Below are positions 12,801 through 60,189 of a stretch of DNA of 64,000 nt, one piece after another. This DNA is from a virus. Lineage: Duplodnaviria; Caudoviricetes. The notes below the pieces were generated by a model that did no database searches, was not told the DNA's origin, and saw nothing but the letters and a program-made list of their open reading frames with translations. Within the stretch, counting starts at the first letter, position 1; every line of letters starts with the position of its first letter. The position numbers were made by a program, and so were the translations under genes. The stretch lies in the IMG/VR virus record IMGVR_UViG_3300027255_000165, one strand, 5' to 3'.

Positions 12801-14286
12801 ACGATCTGTATAGTCTGTTACCAATTGAGTTGTGTTCAATAATCAGAGATGAACCGTTTCTCGTAACTCTAAGTGGATTATCTTGAATGTTATTGATCGC
12901 TTGTAGAATAGAATGTGCAATCTGTTGAAGAGTACCCTGATTCGAGAACCTTTGACCCTGAACTCCACCTGCGGGTATTGAACCGTCTGCAGTAATTGTA
13001 AAGTAGTTCTCGTCTCCGATGGTGTTCCACTCTCCTTTGTTTGCGATGACCCATCTTTCACCATTCAGTGGAATGTCAATCACGTTCAACTTAATAAAGT
13101 CCTTTAAGGCGGGCACTGCACCTTCAACTTGCAGGGTCTCTGGTTTCTGTATCTTACCGGTCACCTGGGTGTCATCTGACATTCCCGCTACCTTCAGTTC
13201 TAGTGATCCAGTACTGGTGTTCAAAACATTATAGAACACTCCTCTGTTCTTGACCCACTGTAAGACAGGAAACCCTAAATCGTCATTAGGTAACATTGAA
13301 ATTGGAGTCAATGAAGTACCGGTTAGATCATATTCGGTTTCAACAGTTGACGCTAGAACTTTTAAGATACCTTTACGAATTGAACCCGCTTGGAACTTAC
13401 CTTCAGTATGTGCCTTAACGTAAAATCCAACATAACGATGTACGTCATAAGGTCTTGCACTTGCATCATCAAAGATGAACTCTAGGTTTAGAAGGTTTGC
13501 GCAAACCATTGTGTTGCGTTTGAAACCCTCGGTGATGTATTGATTATTTAATATTTCTTGACGATCGGTGACCGCAAAATCTTCAAAGATGTATTCTCCC
13601 TTAGATGTGAAACCGCCTTTAACTAGGTCAATACCATTCCAAGATGTTTTCTCATCTTTCTCAAACGATACCGTTAATGGAGAAGATGGAAACTTAGGGT
13701 CATTGATGTAGGTGTTAATGTAATCACCTAATTTTGAACCTTGTCTTAGGTCAAATGTTTTGATCAACTCAGCGTTGTTCAACATCTGCATCACTCGACT
13801 GTTGATACCGTCGTACGTGTCAGTTAATCCAACCTGGGATACTGGTTCGTTAATTCTATAAATGACAAAGTATTCGGGTAGATCAGTGTCTAACCAAATC
13901 GGAGCAAAGAATCTGATGTTATCTTCATATAACTTTGAGTCATTTAGCCTACTACCATACTGGTATTGTTCCTCGTACTGTTTGTTATAATCCCTGAAAA
14001 CGGACATATTTGAGTCCCTGTTCCAAACTTCATATACTTTATCAAGTGGAGTATTCTTGTAAAACTGCGCAAGGTCATACGCATAGTTACCTTTTGAATC
14101 CAACGGAAACTTTTTGTACCTCTGATTAGAGAGTACTCTGTTTGCGTCGATACTGTCAAGGTATAGTTCCCCGTCAGAATCTACAACCAACTTCACATTA
14201 GAAGTCAGGTGTGGATTCGTTCTTAAAACGACCTGTGATTTGTTTTCGACTGAATTCGAATTTACGTCAAAGTTAATGCTAGCCAT
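9871..14286 (-). CDS. large virion structural protein (baseplate/tail, putative)
   Basis: 1471 aa ORF preceded by GATATATA motif in the structural block. Confidence 0.5.
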   Translation of the reverse strand: MASINFDVNSNSVENKSQVVLRTNPHLTSNVKLVVDSDGELYLDSIDANRVLSNQRYKKFPLDSKGNYAYDLAQFYKNTPLDKVYEVWNRDSNMSVFRDYNKQYEEQYQYGSRLNDSKLYEDNIRFFAPIWLDTDLPEYFVIYRINEPVSQVGLTDTYDGINSRVMQMLNNAELIKTFDLRQGSKLGDYINTYINDPKFPSSPLTVSFEKDEKTSWNGIDLVKGGFTSKGEYIFEDFAVTDRQEILNNQYITEGFKRNTMVCANLLNLEFIFDDASARPYDVHRYVGFYVKAHTEGKFQAGSIRKGILKVLASTVETEYDLTGTSLTPISMLPNDDLGFPVLQWVKNRGVFYNVLNTSTGSLELKVAGMSDDTQVTGKIQKPETLQVEGAVPALKDFIKLNVIDIPLNGERWVIANKGEWNTIGDENYFTITADGSIPAGGVQGQRFSNQGTLQQIAHSILQAINNIQDNPLRVTRNGSSLIIEHNSIGNRLYRSFFGSHSTNALDPFEIEVGEFDNVTKKLGLDNSVYTDWNVYYPIGGSNSGIGFLISETEVGDIDTNTYIRVKTGDFYKIIDIVKDPYYSNLYRVCLSASKTRPELLFDTSFNLYVDSYIDWGKFEMFDFVDFDFNFNSTDNNDPKELQYEDYDTQVNPVHFNDSLTYTATTYPTYFKQLEGINNAVTAFGSGVVNINSEYDRLKENYLTSTSTLSRVVPTINKWVYKDSVNSKDKPYFLSTSESFGKTNFSPDITVTGRVPQSMTHEWFYLYKYPQYTSVPQTQAGMGNVIRSFYSYLQPDETINLTASNLQDVNDNWFDRLFTYEGIQINSDWVPTVLSKKWSSVIKGTSISPAETMFRGLKIKFYSRKEFTETNPRNLLTNSDFNGYKFSAVLNYNGQQSEDSVSYKVIQNKKWKNVTFYVEINSSDELLTYVNHKMLYEVNHFINASPTTYVSSNVSGYLDWETAQTTGTNTTVYGEGTFFNREIQVGPSGGYGEIQFVYAGYTFNLQVVDVLGDNRIVVETSSTGTIFDITSSIELSLSSIVTSSSITYQYLQGGYNLATSTFEAAGINYISGLVNVNDTERIEYITVEEDGSILPNRFIINIEDGNDFVKKSKLRVEADPNKPKSYKVSSGLVGYINTELSTPVNVNLLRMGGDYSPLMRKVAWFTDIYKNHKLNQTLTTTSDERQKLVYDRFNRLGIAFGSYANLGSDYYGLIKDYYFHKINPDKADGILKLSQSGDGAPAYPLINEVAIDKRDFNVFRSSWEDGFYVNNDTQSSRQFVFGTLSAYEESSFLASTLNLPKDSYDLTSFNAIRRGNAFEELQNIKRLNNYNGDVVMWEDSSNVWIDLYLKNRVTEILTLDGAGRSLLKYVDVAQSYGDKSTLNDDIKEYIEVNLLKLMGIEQVRLWNNPSKTINQSELLSADSLQQILDTNIPEEKSFRVEYDPNHPLNVRLIYNKRPGFRHQFYVYVKISS

Positions 14287-37706: not shown

Positions 37707-37866
37707 AATACTCTTCTAAATAGTCATTTAGTAATTTAATAGATCTACTCGGACCAATTAGAGCATCGGCCTTAAGGTATCTTCTAACAAACGTTGAAGA
37801 ATCAAGCGTTAAGATCTGTTTTACTAACACATCATATTCTGGTACGTATACTTTATTAAATCCCAT
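37639..37866 (-). CDS. hypothetical protein
   Basis: 75 aa ORF coupled to dCMP deaminase. Confidence 0.5.
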   Translation of the reverse strand: MGFNKVYVPEYDVLVKQILTLDSSTFVRRYLKADALIGPSRSIKLLNDYLEEYYEGSENLKESFIKRIEEGYDNI

Positions 37867-38386
37867 CTTCTTGTCTATTTAATCTTATAACATCAACATG
37901 TGCTTTGTTTAAAAGCTGCAATCCCTCAATATCCCGATATTCTTCTGAATAAAATACTCTCTTAATACCAGATTGAATAATCAGCTTTGAACATTCAAAG
38001 CAAGGAGAAGTAGTTGTATAAAGATCTGCTCCCTCACTTGACATGGTTGACTTAGCAATTTTTGTTAAAGCGTTTGATTCTGCATGTAGAACTTCTCGTT
38101 TTGTGGTAGATTCAGTCTTAGTGCAACAATCATCAACACAGATAAATCCACTGTCTTCTAAATCATCTACGATTTCAGGAGAGGTTGAATAGCTTGCGCT
38201 GATTTTAATTTCTTGAATGTCTTCACATTGATTATCAAAACCCTTTGGGGTTCCATTATATCCAAATGAAACCAACTGGTTGTCTTTAACAATTACGCAT
38301 CCAACCTTACGTCTACTTGCGTAACTCAATTTTGCAAATTGGTACGCAACATCCATATAAACTTCATCAATTGATAACCTGGGCAT
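37856..38386 (-). CDS. dCMP deaminase
   Basis: KVGCVIV, GYNGTPKG, VLHAESNA, SPCFEC Zn-binding motifs. Confidence 0.93.
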   Translation of the reverse strand: MPRLSIDEVYMDVAYQFAKLSYASRRKVGCVIVKDNQLVSFGYNGTPKGFDNQCEDIQEIKISASYSTSPEIVDDLEDSGFICVDDCCTKTESTTKREVLHAESNALTKIAKSTMSSEGADLYTTTSPCFECSKLIIQSGIKRVFYSEEYRDIEGLQLLNKAHVDVIRLNRQEDGI

Positions 38387-43398: not shown

Positions 43399-43615
43399 TC
43401 GGATTGTAACTTTTTTCAGTAATTTTTATCTTGAGTTTTTTTGAATAGTAGTCGATAAAACTTTCTCCAACACCAACCTCATCGATCAACCACTCATTTG
43501 GAATGATAGGCTTTCTCTTTTTAGAGTTAATAATGTCGTCAACGTTCACATCATCAAAAACCGCGATTTCAGGTTTAGCGTTTAGCCTTTTGCGATATAC
43601 AACTACAACTTTCAT
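43391..43615 (-). CDS. hypothetical protein
   Basis: 74 aa coupled ORF. Confidence 0.55.
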   Translation of the reverse strand: MKVVVVYRKRLNAKPEIAVFDDVNVDDIINSKKRKPIIPNEWLIDEVGVGESFIDYYSKKLKIKITEKSYNPIF

Positions 43616-44067
43616 TCTTCAATAGAATCAAAGAAATTCAACACTGCATCCCAGTTTGGAAACTCAGGCGTACCGAACTGAAGCAATTTACCTTTGAATT
43701 CTCCGGCACCATTCTTGGTACGATCGTCAATTAAGAAGTCACCCATTAGAAGATCCTTACGGTGAGAAAGAATTAATCGCTTGTGAGCAAACTTTCCAAG
43801 ATTACGTTGAACCCAGATACGCTTGTCCATCCATGCTTGAGAATTACTCCAGGGCGCAGTGGATAGAAAGAAGATTTCGTGCTTTTCAGCAAGCTTCTTA
43901 ACCGCTTCAATCGCACCTTTAATGGGAGGTGGATCAAGGAACAATTGCTTGTCTACGCTGGTTAACATTCCAATTTTTGCCAGGCCCTGTTGACCGTGGC
44001 GAGCAACAACGTGGGCCTCTAAATCGACCATCACGCCATCAAGATCTATGAAAATAGTTTTACTCAT
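43612..44067 (-). CDS. 5'(3')-deoxyribonucleotidase (HAD, NT5C-like)
   Basis: FIDLDGVM, FLSTAPW, KDLLMGDFLIDDR. Confidence 0.88.
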   Translation of the reverse strand: MSKTIFIDLDGVMVDLEAHVVARHGQQGLAKIGMLTSVDKQLFLDPPPIKGAIEAVKKLAEKHEIFFLSTAPWSNSQAWMDKRIWVQRNLGKFAHKRLILSHRKDLLMGDFLIDDRTKNGAGEFKGKLLQFGTPEFPNWDAVLNFFDSIEE

Positions 44068-46157: not shown

Positions 46158-46742
46158 TTACAAATGTTCTTTTAACCACAGGAGTGGCCATTCAGATGCC
46201 ATAGATCCATATACCTCACTTCTTTCTGGATGCCATTGAACAAGCAAGATCTTAGGACCGTATATAGCTTCAACAATCCCATCCCACGACCACATGATAG
46301 GACGTAAAGGTCTCGGTATTTTTAGGCAGTGTTGGTGGTGGCGAGAGTTGACTCGAAAGTGGTTGTGATCTTCGTCCCAAACCTCATGGTAGATACTCTT
46401 CTTTCGAGCTACGTTGTTTTCCATGATGAAGTCTCGTGAAGAGCTATGATTATCTTCAACCAATAGATCCTCAACGTCACCGCCGAAGTAAGCATTAACA
46501 ATCTGCATTCCTCTACATACTCCAAGAATTGGCCATCCATTCTCGAGAGCTTTATGGATTAGAGAGTACTCAAACACATCTCTTTCTGGATTCTTACCAA
46601 TATCAGCGCCGCCGGCCAAGATCAAAGGACCGTTAAGATCTTCTACGTTACGGAGTATTGTAATACTATGATCAGTCTTCGATAACCACGTGACGTAATA
46701 ACCTAATTCAGCTTCTGATTTTGGAGGTGCTAAATAAACCAC
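46158..46742 (-). CDS. class I glutamine amidotransferase (peptidase C26-like)
   Basis: LAGGADI, ILGVCRGMQ, VNSRHHQ, VQWHPE triad motifs. Confidence 0.88.
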   Translation of the reverse strand: MVYLAPPKSEAELGYYVTWLSKTDHSITILRNVEDLNGPLILAGGADIGKNPERDVFEYSLIHKALENGWPILGVCRGMQIVNAYFGGDVEDLLVEDNHSSSRDFIMENNVARKKSIYHEVWDEDHNHFRVNSRHHQHCLKIPRPLRPIMWSWDGIVEAIYGPKILLVQWHPERSEVYGSMASEWPLLWLKEHL

Positions 46743-53250: not shown

Positions 53251-53922
53251 TTATCTTACTCCTTGAATAACTTCATCAATGATGCCATACTTCATCGCTT
53301 CTTCTGACGTCAACCAGAAATCACGTGTTGCGTCCTTCATTACTTGTGAAGGTTTCTTACCACAGTACTTACCTAGAAGTTCAAACAATTCAAGGTTAAT
53401 CTTCTTCCATTCTACCCAATCAACTTCTGCATCTTGGATATTACCTCTGAATCCGCCAGAAGATTGGTGCAGCATGGTTCTAGAGTGTTTTAGGGATGAT
53501 CTCTTACCCTTTGTTCCTGCACCAAGTAGTACTGATCCCATTGACGCCGCCATCCCTGTGTTAATGGTTCTAATGTCAGACTTAATCCATTCCATCACAT
53601 CCACCATTGATAGACCTGACTTAACTGATCCGCCTGGAGAATCGATGTGCATAGTGATGTCGTCCTTAGATACGTTATCAAGGAACATTAGCTGCGCCTG
53701 TACAACTGTTGACATATTGTCGTTAACTCCACCTGCAACCCATAGGATACGATCTCTCATCAATCGTGAGAAGATGTCCATTTGAGTAACTCGCATCTCA
53801 CGCTCCTCAAGGATGTAAGGCGTCATTGATGATTCAACCTGAGATTGATAGTAGTCAAATTTTGATGAGCTGACGTTGTGATCGCTCATTGCGTATTTCT
53901 TAAACTCTTTACCGTAGTTCAT
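53251..53922 (-). CDS. clpP: ATP-dependent Clp protease proteolytic subunit
   Basis: MDIFSRLMRDRI, IDSPGGSV, AASMG (Ser), MLHQ (His), RDFWL (Asp); N-terminal MNYGKEFKKYA resembles flavobacterial ClpP; start moved from 53934. Confidence 0.95.
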   Translation of the reverse strand: MNYGKEFKKYAMSDHNVSSSKFDYYQSQVESSMTPYILEEREMRVTQMDIFSRLMRDRILWVAGGVNDNMSTVVQAQLMFLDNVSKDDITMHIDSPGGSVKSGLSMVDVMEWIKSDIRTINTGMAASMGSVLLGAGTKGKRSSLKHSRTMLHQSSGGFRGNIQDAEVDWVEWKKINLELFELLGKYCGKKPSQVMKDATRDFWLTSEEAMKYGIIDEVIQGVR

Positions 53923-54271
53923 TTTTCTTTTCAATTATTTCGTACATTTGTTTGATTAGGTCGCAAGTTTCGTATTCTTCAATCGTTACGAAATAGTCGT
54001 TCGCCTTATCCAGTGCTTTATTATATCCATCTTCTTCGACCTGCATTTCATATTCAACACCTTCTTCATCGATTAGAATTGCGACTGGAAGCACTTGTCT
54101 GTCTCCTTCGAGACGTGACAGAATATGATCAACTATACGCCGAAAGAAATCATCGTGATTTGATTGGAGTGTTAGTTCTAAGTCAGTGACCGAAGTTGCG
54201 GAGTCAACGCGAATACGAGGTACTCCATCATCTTCGAAATCAAAGTCAAAATCTTCAAAATCTTCAAACAT
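53909..54271 (-). CDS. acidic protein with a C-terminal UVR-like helix pair
   Basis: ALDKANDYFVTIEEYETCDLIKQ. Confidence 0.5.
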   Translation of the reverse strand: MFEDFEDFDFDFEDDGVPRIRVDSATSVTDLELTLQSNHDDFFRRIVDHILSRLEGDRQVLPVAILIDEEGVEYEMQVEEDGYNKALDKANDYFVTIEEYETCDLIKQMYEIIEKKNELR

Positions 54272-55151
54272 TTTCTACTTCGCTTGAGGTTAACATGTAT
54301 TGGGTAATCATATCACGATAGTCATTCATCTTAGAATCAGAACCAACTAGGCGATTAACTGAATTAATGAACATCATACCCTTTGAGGTGAGGTGATAGT
54401 TACCATCTTTATCATACACGAAGAAAGGTTCTGTTAGTTCCATTCGGTATGGACGACGCAAATCTAGATCTTCGTTTAAGATAGAATCCGCAAGTGAGAA
54501 ATGTTGTTCGTAATAGTGGATGTTATCCGCACAATGATGATAGGTACCCAACCGAAGATCAGTGTAGGTGTCTTTTAACCACAAGTACATATGTTGGTGA
54601 ACAAAGGCGAAGAACGGTGCATCATAGGTCAAACCGTAGAAGATGTCGTTTGAACGCATTTGAACTTTCATATTCAGTTTGTTATTACGAATCCAGAAGT
54701 TGAGGTACATCGTACACACGAAGTCTTTGTTACCTTCGAACTGAAACTTAGGTTGGTTCAAGAAGGCGATCGCTTGACGAGTGTTCTGATCTTTTAAAAG
54801 AGAATCACGAACCCACTTTAACTGATCACCAAACAAGAGGTTACCATAGTTAGAGTTGATCTCATTGGTTCCAGGATTGGTGATACCTTTCCAGAAACCT
54901 GAGAACTGATTTATGTAGTCAATGTTACAATCGCGGTTTAGGTACCATGCAAGTTCACCAGCGAAATACTTGAAGTTGAACTTACGAGATTCAAAGTCAG
55001 CGAAAGCGTTGGTTGGGTCAATGTTAACTTGACCCAACGTGAGTTCACGAACTTTAAGATCACGTGGTTGAGATTCAGATCCACCTGCATTAATCAATGC
55101 AATTAGATCTTGAAACTGTGTACTGAATGAACGGTCTTTATAGATTATCAT
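54264..55151 (-). CDS. thymidylate synthase-family enzyme, dCMP hydroxymethylase-like
   Basis: EINSNYG, DFVCT, MRSNDIFYGLTYD with Asp at the specificity position; start moved to MIIYKD (55151). Confidence 0.75.
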   Translation of the reverse strand: MIIYKDRSFSTQFQDLIALINAGGSESQPRDLKVRELTLGQVNIDPTNAFADFESRKFNFKYFAGELAWYLNRDCNIDYINQFSGFWKGITNPGTNEINSNYGNLLFGDQLKWVRDSLLKDQNTRQAIAFLNQPKFQFEGNKDFVCTMYLNFWIRNNKLNMKVQMRSNDIFYGLTYDAPFFAFVHQHMYLWLKDTYTDLRLGTYHHCADNIHYYEQHFSLADSILNEDLDLRRPYRMELTEPFFVYDKDGNYHLTSKGMMFINSVNRLVGSDSKMNDYRDMITQYMLTSSEVENV

Positions 55152-55179
55152 AATTAGAAACTCTGTTACTATTATACTC

Positions 55180-57186
55180 TTAACGTAACGAAAGTTTCTG
55201 ATCATTTTTGGTGTAGGTGATAGTGTACACCTTTTCACCTGCTACGATTTCACCATCCAGGATACCATCCGCAAGAATGTCTTCAACGTACTTTTGAATT
55301 GCACGCTTTAGAGGACGTGCACCGTATGCAGGGTCATATCCTTCTTTGACTAGGAAGTCTTTCGCTTGTTTAGTGAACTTCAATCGAATGTCTTGTTCAA
55401 ACATGCGTTCACATAAGTCTAGGAGTTCGATGTCAACAATCTTCATCATGTGTTCGTCTGTCAACTGGTCGAATAGAACGATATCGTCTAGGCGATTCAA
55501 GAACTCAGGAGTAAACTTATTCTTAAGTTCCTTCTTAATGATGCCTTCCATCTGTGCTTTCTCAGTTGCAACATTCGAACGACTAGTAAATCCAATACCT
55601 CCTCCAAATTCAGCTGCTTTCTTAGCACCTACGTTCGATGTCATAACAATGATGGTATTAGTAAAGTCAACAGTGCGACCGAGAGAGTCGGTCAAGCGTC
55701 CATCATCAAGAACTTGAAGAAGAACGTTAAAAGTATCAGGGTGTGCCTTTTCAACCTCGTCAAATAGTATGACAGAATAAGGCTTACGACGAACTGCTTC
55801 GGTTAATTGACCGCCGTCTTCGTGGCCAATATATCCTGGAGGCGCTCCAGTCAATCGAGATACATTGAACTTTTCTTGGTATTCAGACATATCAATTCGA
55901 ATCATAGCATCCTCGGAGCCAAACATGTATTCAGTCAGTGCCTTTACAGTCTCAGTCTTACCAACTCCTGTTGGACCCAAGAACATGAATGAACCGATCG
56001 GCTTCTTGTGAGAAGATACTCCAACGCGTGAACGTTTAATAACCTTTGCAAGAGCATCAACTGCATCATCTTGGCCGATGATCTTTTTCTTTAACCCTTC
56101 ACCAAGCAGACGAATCATTTTGCTTTCATCACCTGAAAGGCGTGACAATGGAATGCCTGTTTGTTGAGATAGAGTTTCGGCAATAACCTCGGCGTCAACT
56201 TCTTTGCGATCTTCTTTTAAAGATTGCTCCCATTCTTTGATTGACTTTTCAAGATCTTTGCGCTTATTCATTTCCTGATCTCGGAACTGTGCAGCTTTTT
56301 CATAATCCTGCTGTGATACACTTTCAAGCTTATCCTGCTTTAATAGTTCGGCTTCTTTCTCCATCTTTTTAATAGAAGTAGGAACCTTAATTTCTTGAAG
56401 GTGAATCTTAGCACCTGCTTCATCCATCAAATCGATAGCCTTGTCTGGGAGTTCACGAGAAGTGATATATCTGTCAGACAATTTGACACAAGCTTCAATA
56501 GCTTCGGGAGTGTACTGGACAACGTGATGATCCTCATACTTATCCTTAATTCTTTCTAGGATTTGAATCGTATCCTCGATCGAAGGTGCATCAATGAATA
56601 CTTCTTGAAATCTACGCGTCAATGCACCATCATCCTCAATGTTTTCACGGTACTCATCTAATGTAGTAGCACCAATACACTGGACTTGTCCTCTTGCAAG
56701 GGCAGGCTTTAAAATGTTTGAAGCATCTAAAGAACCACTTACACCGCCCGCACCCACTATCGTGTGAATTTCATCAACGAAGACGATAATGTTAGGATTA
56801 GCCTTTAGCTCATCAACTATATTCTTCATTCTTTCTTCAAATTCACCACGGTATTTGGTACCCGCAACGATGATAGTCATGTTCAAAGAAACTAATCGTT
56901 TTCCGATCAAAGTTCTTGCAACCTTTCCTTCTACGATTCTCTGTGCAATGGCTTCAACAACTGCAGTTTTACCAACACCTGGATCTCCAAGGATGATTGG
57001 GTTATTTTTCTTGCGACGAGCAAGAATTTGACAAATTCTCAAGATCTCAGCATCTCTGCCAATGATTGGATCTAATTTGCCCTCCTTGGCCATTAGGGTG
57101 AGATCTTCACCGAACTGATCTAGGTATGGAGTTGAACCGGCCTTCTTAGGACCTCGTCTTGATTCGTTTGGATCTTCAAATGCCAT
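55180..57186 (-). CDS. clpC: ClpC-type AAA+ unfoldase lacking the N-terminal domain
   Basis: Two AAA modules (GDPGVGKT/FVDEIH; GPTGVGKT/FDEVEK), pore loops KYRG and GYIG, UVR-type M-domain DYEKAAQFRD, IGF loop. Confidence 0.9.
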   Translation of the reverse strand: MAFEDPNESRRGPKKAGSTPYLDQFGEDLTLMAKEGKLDPIIGRDAEILRICQILARRKKNNPIILGDPGVGKTAVVEAIAQRIVEGKVARTLIGKRLVSLNMTIIVAGTKYRGEFEERMKNIVDELKANPNIIVFVDEIHTIVGAGGVSGSLDASNILKPALARGQVQCIGATTLDEYRENIEDDGALTRRFQEVFIDAPSIEDTIQILERIKDKYEDHHVVQYTPEAIEACVKLSDRYITSRELPDKAIDLMDEAGAKIHLQEIKVPTSIKKMEKEAELLKQDKLESVSQQDYEKAAQFRDQEMNKRKDLEKSIKEWEQSLKEDRKEVDAEVIAETLSQQTGIPLSRLSGDESKMIRLLGEGLKKKIIGQDDAVDALAKVIKRSRVGVSSHKKPIGSFMFLGPTGVGKTETVKALTEYMFGSEDAMIRIDMSEYQEKFNVSRLTGAPPGYIGHEDGGQLTEAVRRKPYSVILFDEVEKAHPDTFNVLLQVLDDGRLTDSLGRTVDFTNTIIVMTSNVGAKKAAEFGGGIGFTSRSNVATEKAQMEGIIKKELKNKFTPEFLNRLDDIVLFDQLTDEHMMKIVDIELLDLCERMFEQDIRLKFTKQAKDFLVKEGYDPAYGARPLKRAIQKYVEDILADGILDGEIVAGEKVYTITYTKNDQKLSLR

Positions 57187-57742: not shown

Positions 57743-58423
57743 TTAGAAATTAGGTGAACCTTCTTTGGTGTACTTGTTAAAGTATTCTAGAATTTTATCA
57801 CGTGCTTCAACTGCACTGTCAACTACTCGAAAAAGATCCAAGTCTTTCTCGCTTACTCGACCTGAGGAAACAAGAGTTTCTTTGATCCAATCTATTAGAC
57901 CTCCCCAGAACTCTTTACCAACTAAAACAATAGGATACTTTATGTTATGGCCGGTTTGAACCAGTGTTAGAGCTTCAAACAATTCATCTAACGTACCTAA
58001 ACCTCCAGGGAATATAACGAATCCTTGTGAGTATTTAAGGAACATTACTTTACGTGTGAAGAAATAACGGTTCTCTACCCCATAGTCAACATACTTATTC
58101 ATGCCAGATTCAAATGGTAATTCAATACCAATACCAATTGATTTGGCATCCACTGTTTGAGCACCGTGATTTGCGGCAGCCATAATTCCTGGTCCACCGC
58201 CTGTGATGATTCCAAATCCTTCCGCTCCCATTAGCACTCCAAATTGCTTGGCTTCTTCGTACCATTTAGATCCCACCGATGTTCGAGCCGAACCGAATAC
58301 GGATACACAGGGTACGTCTAATTCATTAAAGGTATCAAATCCTTTGGTGAATTCACTTTGAATTCGAAGAATTTGCCAAGCATCAGTGGCTTTGTCATGT
58401 TTGTTCCAAGATGGATTATCCAT
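57743..58423 (-). CDS. LOG-family nucleotide phosphoribohydrolase (TIGR00730-like)
   Basis: VFGSART, TGGGPGIM, YFFTRK, PGGLGTLDE. Confidence 0.9.
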   Translation of the reverse strand: MDNPSWNKHDKATDAWQILRIQSEFTKGFDTFNELDVPCVSVFGSARTSVGSKWYEEAKQFGVLMGAEGFGIITGGGPGIMAAANHGAQTVDAKSIGIGIELPFESGMNKYVDYGVENRYFFTRKVMFLKYSQGFVIFPGGLGTLDELFEALTLVQTGHNIKYPIVLVGKEFWGGLIDWIKETLVSSGRVSEKDLDLFRVVDSAVEARDKILEYFNKYTKEGSPNF

Positions 58424-58605: not shown

Positions 58606-59361
58606 CTATTTTGGAACAGCCACTCCACGCTTGGTGACAACCATACCTGCCATCTCATTTCCATATCTAATGGCTTCTGAAGTATCTCCAGTCTCAACAA
58701 ACTTAAGAGTGAAGGCTGCCACAAACGTATCTCCTGCTCCACTGACGTCGATTGTTTCCTGTGGATTTTCAGAAGGATACGATTTACCATTATGATAAAC
58801 GCCTTTAGCGCCCAGGGTTACAATGAATTTCTCAGGATAAAGTGCCACTAGTTTCTTATTGTACTCGGCCTCTCCCTCGTTCAATTTAATAAATGTGAAA
58901 GCGTCAACTACTTCAACCGAAAGTTTCTTTTTGCTGTCTAACACTGATACGTGAGAATCCTTAGCAATCTTACAGATTGTCTTAATATCCATAAAGCCTT
59001 TATCATAATCGCTTACGATCGTAGCATCTGCATCATGTAAAAAGTCAACCACTTGATCTGGCATATCTTCAAAAACTAGAGGACTGATCTGTCCTTCACC
59101 TTCGTCTAATCGAACGAACATGTGATTAGACTTCTTTTCGATGAATCGAGTCTTTGTGATCTCTTCGTCCTGCCAAACGTGAAGAACCCGTGCATCTTCA
59201 TTCATCGCGTGAAGGTTTTCAACCACGTTACCGGCCATCCCTGGATTTTCAATCGTCTCTATAGGATTTAATACGGGTACAGGTGCTTCAGGACTTAATC
59301 TCTTAATCTCTGAATACACGAATCTGTCGGTGCATAGCTCACCGAATACTGCTACTTGCAT
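58606..59361 (-). CDS. HldE/RfaE domain I-like sugar-phosphate kinase (PfkB)
   Basis: RLSPEAPVPV, SDYDKG, TLGAKG, DVSGAGDTF. Confidence 0.88.
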   Translation of the reverse strand: MQVAVFGELCTDRFVYSEIKRLSPEAPVPVLNPIETIENPGMAGNVVENLHAMNEDARVLHVWQDEEITKTRFIEKKSNHMFVRLDEGEGQISPLVFEDMPDQVVDFLHDADATIVSDYDKGFMDIKTICKIAKDSHVSVLDSKKKLSVEVVDAFTFIKLNEGEAEYNKKLVALYPEKFIVTLGAKGVYHNGKSYPSENPQETIDVSGAGDTFVAAFTLKFVETGDTSEAIRYGNEMAGMVVTKRGVAVPK

Positions 59362-59803
59362 GGTTTATGATGTTTGTTGATGAATATCCTTCAATGCGGT
59401 CAAAGAAGACGAGCTTACCTGCATACTCTGATCCTATTACTCTCTTATTCTTATAATCAGATCCAACGATCATGACACTGGGCTTCCAATCTTTGATACA
59501 TTCAATTAACGTTTCATCACTATCGAATCCAACAACTGAATGAACGGCCTTAAGGTTAGAGATTACATAGGTTCGATCCTCCCAATTATTAACTGGTCTA
59601 TCTTCGCCTTTCAATTCTTTAACTCGACTATCTAAATCGATACCTACACGAACGTCGCCATATTGTGCCGCGAAGTTCATGAGTTCAACGTGTCCTCGAT
59701 GAATGACATCAAACGTGCCATTAACCCAAACACGAGGACGATTGGAACTCTTATTAGAATTCCAATCCTCGTCATTTAATCTCTTTAGAATGTCTTTGTT
59801 CAT
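59339..59803 (-). CDS. HldE/RfaE domain II-like sugar nucleotidyltransferase
   Basis: NGTFDVIHRGH (HxGH), KELKGEDRPVN, GSDY, YSST; start moved from 59827. Confidence 0.88.
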   Translation of the reverse strand: MNKDILKRLNDEDWNSNKSSNRPRVWVNGTFDVIHRGHVELMNFAAQYGDVRVGIDLDSRVKELKGEDRPVNNWEDRTYVISNLKAVHSVVGFDSDETLIECIKDWKPSVMIVGSDYKNKRVIGSEYAGKLVFFDRIEGYSSTNIINHASSSIR

Positions 59804-60189
59804 TTGGTTTGAGAATCTCCACGCCAAACTCGGTAAGAATCCGAATCGAAGTGTTGAGTAGATACTTCAAACACGGTACCATCTGTCAGGGCCTCCAATT
59901 GGTGAGGCTGACCAGGAAACTGACGAACTGAATCACCTACACGAAGCTTTTGTTCGTGAACTTCAGCGGTCTCAGTATCGATCCAACGATACAGGAATTC
60001 ACCTTCTTCTACATACCATGTCTCGTCTTTGATCATGTGGTAGTGCATAGAGAACATGCAACCCTTCTTAAAGACCAATAGCTTTCCACAGTACAGCTCA
60101 TTATTCACGAAGATAACTTCGTGACCCCATCCCTTTGGGACGTTACAACCTTCGCATTCAAGTGCGTTGATTACCTTTGGTTTTTCCAT
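59800..60189 (-). CDS. cupin, sugar isomerase-like
   Basis: KGWGHE, SMHYHMIKDETW, GQPHQL. Confidence 0.75.
   Translation of the reverse strand: MEKPKVINALECEGCNVPKGWGHEVIFVNNELYCGKLLVFKKGCMFSMHYHMIKDETWYVEEGEFLYRWIDTETAEVHEQKLRVGDSVRQFPGQPHQLEALTDGTVFEVSTQHFDSDSYRVWRGDSQTK

Follow-up and report, generated by a model that had tools for sequence, protein, structure and literature searches.

Does a gene with the fold of thymidylate synthase (ThyA) supply its phage with thymidylate (dTMP), or with a modified cytosine nucleotide? This question is raised by a minus-strand gene in IMG/VR record IMGVR_UViG_3300027255_000165, a 64,000-nucleotide stretch of DNA from a member of the Caudoviricetes, the whole of which is referred to here as the window. 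A first-pass annotation, made from the letters alone, had described the encoded protein as a ThyA homologue with a signature specific for deoxycytidylate (dCMP), and had proposed 5-hydroxymethyl-, 5-methyl- or 5-hydroxy-dCMP as its product. We confirmed that the gene encodes a divergent ThyA homologue with dCMP-type motifs. Its active-site residues suggest, with good confidence, that it is a deoxycytidylate hydroxymethylase of the type of phage T4 gp42.

Sequence and fold of the ThyA homologue

The open reading frame (ORF) is intact, running on the minus strand from an ATG at 55151 through 295 uninterrupted residues to the stop codon at 54264-54266. An alternative, longer start (GTG 55238) would overlap the upstream Clp ATPase gene at its 3′ end. 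The homologues listed agree in length, at 279-302 amino acids (aa), and include a 99%-identical protein of 295 aa at 100% coverage; at least 90% of them share the N-terminal sequence MIIYK.

To locate the diagnostic residues, Escherichia coli thyA (b2827, NC_000913), T4 gene 42 and RB69 gene 48 were taken from annotated records and aligned to the query with MAFFT. The motifs named in the first-pass annotation were all found. EINSNYG occupies residues 96-102, and DFVCT, which had been said to replace PCH, occupies residues 143-147, where E. coli ThyA reads APCH. The string RSNDIFYGLTYD at residues 166-177 corresponds to RSCDVFLGLPFN in E. coli and places Asp at the position of ThyA Asn177; its codon (GAT, 54621-54623) falls in the same column as E. 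coli Asn177 and T4 Asp179. The alignment also bore out the motifs that had been given for T4 gp42, namely DFMCT and RSNDVVFGFRND, with Asp at this position. Residue numbers of the query coincide by chance with E. coli ThyA numbering in the motif region. The coordinates of these residues and of the other genes discussed are collected in Table 1.

Table 1. Positions in the window of the predicted hydroxymethylase gene, its diagnostic codons and other genes discussed in the text
Feature	Position	Strand	Remarks
Predicted dCMP hydroxymethylase gene	54264..55151	(-)	295 aa; ThyA fold plus extra C-terminal domain
Asp143-Phe-Val-Cys146 codons	54714..54725	(-)	Cys146, catalytic nucleophile; Asp143 at the ThyA Leu143 site
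Arg166-Ser167-Asn168-Asp169 through Asp177 codons	54621..54656	(-)	Specificity residues, by alignment
Acidic 120-aa ORF	53909..54271	(-)	ATG overlaps hydroxymethylase stop (ATGTTTGA)
LOG/SLOG-family gene (PF03641, nucleotide N-glycosidase family)	57743-58423		Co-conserved with the block in 33/59 loci
PfkB sugar kinase, cytidylyltransferase-like and cupin genes	58606..60189	(-)	Candidate nucleoside diphosphate (NDP)-sugar module
dCMP deaminase (T4 cd homologue)	37856..38386	(-)	tblastn 31% identity, E 2e-20; PF00383 84 bits
NT5C-type 5′-deoxynucleotidase-like gene	43612..44067	(-)	PF06941 53.9 bits
Class-I glutamine amidotransferase / peptidase C26-like gene	46158-46742		Early-gene region shared with the NT5C-type gene

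The protein scored 59.7 bits against the ThyA family model PF00303 (Pfam cut-off 24.3), placing it in the family. The NCBIfam equivalog models of thymidylate synthase, in contrast, gave only 20-48 bits against cut-offs of 108-427, the best being 48 against 327. When the PDB was searched with phmmer, the top sequence matches were T4 dCMP hydroxymethylase (E 6e-15) and the CMP 5-hydroxymethylase MilA (6e-14). Thymidylate synthases followed at 1.8e-10 and worse, with E. coli ThyA at E 1.9e-5.

These scores bear on the reading that the protein is a true thymidylate synthase, if a divergent one, or a deoxyuridylate (dUMP) hydroxymethylase acting on uracil nucleotides. All source-given names among the listed homologues read "thymidylate synthase", and the names of the top PHROG families do likewise. 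Nevertheless, the query and its homologues carry an invariant Asp in place of Asn177, whereas canonical ThyA and the homologue from phage CP-51 keep Asn. The dUMP hydroxymethylases of the SPO1 gp29 / CP-51 type thus differ at this site: CP-51 gp100 combines D143 with N177, and the query D143 with D177. We also read the genomic context of the gene in 14 large related contigs, in which the hydroxymethylases are 45-71% identical to the query; one of the contigs, G002, is complete (256 kb, with terminal repeats). The record nearest to the window, G001, is a fragment of 18 kb that lacks the gene. The first-pass annotation had suggested looking for a separate thyA or thyX, and one was present in several of these genomes: an additional canonical ThyA (∼300 bits) in five of the 14 (G002, G003, G004, G009 and G011) and ThyX in one (G005), the remaining contigs being only 35-59% complete. 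Asp177, the sub-cut-off synthase scores and the separate ThyA or ThyX of relatives support the earlier claim that dCMP is the substrate and dTMP is not the product, and an enzyme working on uracil nucleotides is highly improbable.

The AlphaFold model of the protein, built from 125 homologues, had a mean predicted local distance difference test (pLDDT) score of 95.7 and a predicted template modeling (pTM) score of 0.93. All ten best Foldseek matches of this predicted model in the PDB were either MilA or T4 dCMP hydroxymethylase. The probability was 1.00 to the T4 entries 1B49, 1B5D and 6A9A, and the best structural match was MilA from mildiomycin biosynthesis (PDB 5JNH, 5B6D and 5B6E; E 3e-18, TMq 0.73-0.76). 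The model includes a well-predicted C-terminal domain of ∼65 aa (residues ∼228-292), in which a short beta-hairpin is followed by three helices. This domain is lacking in T4 gp42, which is 246 aa long and ∼25% identical to the query, and it is partly covered by the structural alignments with MilA.

In a FastTree phylogeny of 171 sequences, the query family formed a well-supported clade inside the radiation that carries the D143/D169/D177 signature. Because the branches of T4 gp42, RB69 gp48 and CP-51 were very long and deep relationships are unreliable, we based the classification on active-site residues rather than on the tree. The best phage matches, 33-40% identical, came from an uncultured 462-kb phage, Ralstonia phage RsoM2USA, Acinetobacter phages and Xanthomonas phage Xp15.

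Active-site residues and the predicted product

The active-site signature of the query in E. coli numbering is E58, W80, Y94, R126, D143, C146, T147, M165, R166, S167, N168, D169, G173, D177, H207 and Y209. The conserved family residues Glu58, Tyr94, Arg166, Ser167, Asp169, His207 and Tyr209 and the catalytic Cys146 are all present, as in ThyA itself, to which the query is 18-20% identical and from which it differs by L143D, H147T, Q165M and N177D and by another C-terminus. When 16 active-site positions were compared with T4 gp42 (PDB 1B49, 1B5D, 1B5E and 6A9A), 15 were the same, including Asp143, Cys146, Thr147, Met165, the RSND string and Asp177; the exception was R127, which is Gln in the query. 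Asp143, Cys146, Arg166, Ser167 and Asp177 were invariant in the 125 homologues (27-79% identity), and Asp169, Gly173 and Tyr209, which the query keeps, are also kept by at least 90% of them. The Asp143/Asp169/Asp177 triad occurred in 165 of the 171 aligned sequences.

Four published determinants allow these residues to be interpreted. With Asp in place of Asn177, members of the family take cytosine rather than uracil nucleotides (Liu and Santi 1992 and others, as cited in PMC8670742; PMC5175136), and Asp177 in the query therefore indicates a cytosine substrate. The position of ThyA Leu143 is occupied by Asp or Glu in hydroxymethylating enzymes and by a bulky hydrophobic residue in methylating ones (PMC13326640), so that Asp143 points to hydroxymethylation, not methylation, of the substrate. 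The preference of MilA for ribose has been attributed to Ala176 and Lys133′, which replace the Ser and Arg of deoxy-specific enzymes (PMC5175136); Ser167 and Arg125 of the query indicate a deoxyribose substrate. Finally, D169N was present in all tested flavin-dependent 5-hydroxy-dCMP synthases, that is RB69 gp48, DLP3 gp80 and nine others (PMC13326640), and Asp169 is retained in the query, which argues against a synthase of that type. Taken together, the four determinants lead us to read the product as 5-hydroxymethyl-dCMP, and by these sequence rules it is very probably so. Asp143 and Asp169 thus narrow the three products proposed in the first-pass annotation to one.

We weighed this assignment against the other activities known in the superfamily. 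A dCMP methyltransferase, as inferred for Xanthomonas phage XP-12, would make 5-methyl-dCMP and lead to 5-methylcytosine in DNA. Asp177 alone is compatible with such an enzyme, since N177D makes ThyA a dCMP methylase according to work cited in PMC8670742. However, the Asp at the Leu143 position, invariant in the 125 homologues, is the state linked to hydroxymethylation by the published rule (PMC13326640), a rule and not the sequence of a proven methylase, and H147T and Q165M are also as in T4 gp42. In addition, T4 alpha- and beta-glucosyltransferase homologues occur in relatives, and such enzymes require a hydroxyl acceptor. We consider a methylase unlikely.

The flavin-dependent 5-hydroxy-dCMP synthases of the RB69 gp48 / DLP3 gp80 type, whose product is glycosylated through an ether link, share with the query the ThyA superfamily, N177D, which goes with their dCMP substrate, and an acidic residue at site 143; the phages that encode them have genes for sugar nucleotides and for DNA glycosyltransferases (PMC13326640). 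Sugar-nucleotide genes also lie near the query gene, and Acinetobacter phages are among its best cultured-phage matches. Yet these synthases are only ∼20% identical to the query and depend on flavin and O2 rather than on folate one-carbon transfer. The diagnostic D169N is absent from the query, which has Asp169, Gly173 and Tyr209 where RB69 gp48 has N169, V173 and F209, and RB69 gp48 gave no significant tblastn match on the window. The homologue from Acinetobacter phage MD-2021a retains Asp169 as well. There is therefore little reason to expect a 5-hydroxy-dCMP synthase here, and we regard that activity as very improbable.

The structural similarity to MilA could point instead to a small-molecule nucleotide hydroxymethylase (MilA/MilB, BcmA-like), whose product the LOG-like hydrolase encoded nearby would break down to the free base. 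MilA is the best structural match, shares the extra C-terminal domain and has Asp at the equivalents of positions 143 and 177; the LOG-family gene (PF03641) belongs to the conserved block in 33 of 59 related loci; and a deoxynucleoside monophosphate (dNMP) kinase was not recognized in five large relatives. MilA, however, is a bacterial enzyme of secondary metabolism with the ribose-type Ala and Lys, whereas the query has the deoxy-state Ser167 and Arg125. Furthermore, the genes beside that of the DNA polymerase in relatives include gp56-like and T4-type DNA glucosyltransferase genes, and a P-loop kinase gene overlaps the hydroxymethylase start in a sister subgroup. A small-molecule route therefore seems scarcely likely for this gene. 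In every sequence feature that can be tested, the query reads as a T4 gp42-type enzyme and not as ThyA, an RB69-type synthase, MilA or a dUMP hydroxymethylase, and at ∼25% identity it is a distant member of the gp42 kind.

Genes of the proposed pathway in related phages

If the query is a gp42-type hydroxymethylase, the enzyme is probably homodimeric, like its family, and Cys146 would attack C6 of dCMP while Asp177 oriented and protonated the cytosine ring. C5 would receive the methylene group of 5,10-methylene-tetrahydrofolate, and water, not a folate hydride, would add to the exocyclic methylene to give 5-hydroxymethyl-dCMP (hm-dCMP) and tetrahydrofolate; addition of water is proposed because Asp sits at the ThyA Leu143 site. 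Judging from relatives, a gp56-like pyrophosphatase would remove dCTP and supply dCMP. Some kinase and the host NDP kinase would raise hm-dCMP to the triphosphate, and the phage polymerase would incorporate 5-hydroxymethylcytosine (5hmC) instead of C. The 5hmC would then be decorated by a phage glycosyltransferase, the kind of which differs among relatives, and the DNA would so be shielded from host nucleases, while dTMP would come separately from canonical ThyA or ThyX. On this view, the phage probably carries a substitute for cytosine in its DNA, like T4.

Many of the genes that such a pathway would need are present in the related contigs. G002 has homologues of gp32, gp41, gp43 (split), UvsX, NrdA, cd and gp56, indicating that the lineage is T4-related. 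Of the pyrimidine deoxynucleotide genes, a dCMP deaminase gene (T4 cd homologue) is present in the window itself. A dCTPase gene had also been suggested as a check on the earlier reading, and a gp56-like putative dCTPase was found in 10 of the 14 contigs; wherever its neighbors were examined, this ORF adjoins the N-terminal half of the DNA polymerase. The slot directly upstream of the gp56-like gene varies among contigs. It holds a full-length homologue of T4 alpha-glucosyltransferase in G006, G007, G008 and G015 (PF11440, 64 bits; 25% identical to T4 a-gt over 414 aa), and homologues of T4 beta-glucosyltransferase (PF09198) are present in G009 and G010. In G009 the beta-glucosyltransferase homologue overlaps the start of the gp56-like gene and stands beside an NDP-sugar epimerase/dehydratase and a nucleotidyltransferase. 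The slot of G002 (L064:11601-14399) carries a UDP-galactopyranose mutase (Glf) and a GT2 protein with a helical-repeat C-terminus, which recall the UDP-galactofuranose route proposed for Rhizobium phage RL38JI (PMC13326640), and that of G011 is occupied by the canonical ThyA gene. Together, the genes in relatives constitute the T-even 5hmC gene set with a diversified sugar step, and the T-even-style 5hmC pathway of this lineage is probably glycosylated.

Within this variable slot, G010 (L091:1198-3839) has a myo-inositol-1-phosphate synthase homologue (PF01658) adjoining the beta-glucosyltransferase-like gene upstream of the gp56-like gene, an unusual neighbor for a DNA glycosyltransferase. 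In a sister subgroup of seven loci (L044:5252-14375, which is G003, and L036, L041, L043, L045, L046 and L052), the gene that overlaps the hydroxymethylase start encodes a 188-aa P-loop kinase. Besides this kinase, the cluster encodes a GT-B-like protein of 464 aa, a GT25 protein, a C5 DNA methylase-like protein (PF00145) and a DXD glycosyltransferase, with a GT2 gene downstream. The C5 methylase-like protein is puzzling in a phage predicted to replace its cytosine.

Several observations weigh against the gp42-type assignment and the pathway built on it. The nearest characterized enzyme, T4 gp42, is a distant one, as its low identity to the query indicates, and the rules that tie positions 143 and 169 to a product are correlations observed in a limited number of assayed enzymes. 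The gp56-like protein is only 29% identical to T4 gp56 over 111 aa and matches no Pfam family, so that its dCTPase activity is assumed. T4 itself has a gp1 kinase, alc, denA and denB. In contrast, a T4 gp1-type dNMP kinase (PF21448) was not found in the five large relatives searched, G002 included, and homologues of alc, denA and denB were not found in the window or in G002. More broadly, tblastn with T4 gp1, alpha-gt, beta-gt, alc, denA, denB, frd and arn gave no match at E<1e-3 in either of these two, and Pfam and PHROG scans of ∼40 ORFs of the window revealed no glycosyltransferase or nucleotide kinase. A search with the kinase family PF02223 returned only sub-threshold P-loop matches. G002 encodes two AAA_33 kinases, which are candidates for the hm-dCMP kinase.

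Two related genomes have interrupted genes. In G004, the closest large relative (71%), the hydroxymethylase homologue is split into two overlapping frames, C1:12906-13427 and 13423-13617 (L051), and the canonical ThyA gene lies 4 kb upstream. The frameshift is either an assembly error or the mark of a pseudogene. The canonical thyA of G002 is divided between the ends of the record (C1:6-524 and 255882-256442), as would be expected if a circularly permuted or terminally redundant genome had been opened within it.

Genomic neighborhood, distribution and significance

In the window, the genes of this T4-related phage form a co-directional block on the minus strand, and the hydroxymethylase gene is the only ThyA-fold gene in its 64 kb. 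It lies 28 nucleotides downstream of the gene for a two-domain Clp ATPase. The two belong to a conserved Clp module (53251-57186) that encodes, in order, the Clp ATPase (668 aa, two AAA domains), the hydroxymethylase, the translationally coupled acidic 120-aa ORF and ClpP. This arrangement is retained in 43-47 of the 59 related IMG/VR loci and puts an enzyme of nucleotide metabolism inside a protease operon; T4 gene 42, in contrast, adjoins beta-gt. The acidic ORF, for which no match was found in Pfam or PHROG, accompanies the hydroxymethylase in 43 of the 59 loci, with clpP coming next. The Clp block, a PF04308 gene and the LOG-family gene are conserved together in most of the 59. A role of the LOG/SLOG protein in clearing pyrimidine nucleotides is conceivable, and the MilA partner MilB is likewise a nucleotide hydrolase.

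Farther from the hydroxymethylase gene, the amidotransferase/C26-like and NT5C-type genes may take part in remodeling the nucleotide pool. The PfkB kinase, cytidylyltransferase-like and cupin module, 3.5 kb from the hydroxymethylase gene, occurs in only one or two of the 59 loci and is therefore regarded as an accessory cassette; that it has a role in DNA glycosylation is a conjecture. More generally, it is possible, though we advance it only tentatively, that 5hmC serves the lineage as the foundation for an exchangeable DNA-glycosylation cassette, and that, if so, some members, possibly including this phage, carry undescribed DNA sugars (heptose-type or galactofuranose).

More than 1200 close homologues of the protein were found in marine metagenomes, some of them from Tara Oceans, and DNA of the window is present in marine metagenome runs. 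The 59 related IMG/VR contigs that carry the locus are up to 260 kb long. In one seawater metatranscriptome, RNA-library contigs covered the hydroxymethylase gene at 90-97% likeness, a level indicating that they come from relatives. Two other RNA runs covered the Clp ATPase gene only, and RNA-library contigs of this kind cannot prove transcription.

Asp177 homologues linked to modified cytosine have already been described as common in environmental phages (PMC8670742). The 5hmC strategy itself is well known; here it probably recurs in an abundant, unstudied group of marine phages. One group of pelagimyophages has been reported to have "two different thymidylate synthases" (PMC7029224), which may reflect the same kind of misreading. 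We considered whether the present group is pelagimyophage "group C", but this identity fits poorly: the GC content is 38% against 30-35%, and its relatives reach 260 kb against 132-164 kb (PMC7029224).

Two features above all make the locus of interest: the abundance of the lineage and its variable glycosylation slot, a concrete location in which to search for new DNA sugars and DNA-modifying enzymes. If the gene encodes a dCMP hydroxymethylase, widespread large marine phages are predicted to have fully substituted and probably glycosylated cytosine. Such a substitution would affect the resistance of these phages to restriction and CRISPR and the recovery and sequencing of their DNA in viromes. 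It would also affect which host defenses target them, for example type IV restriction and DNA glycosylases.

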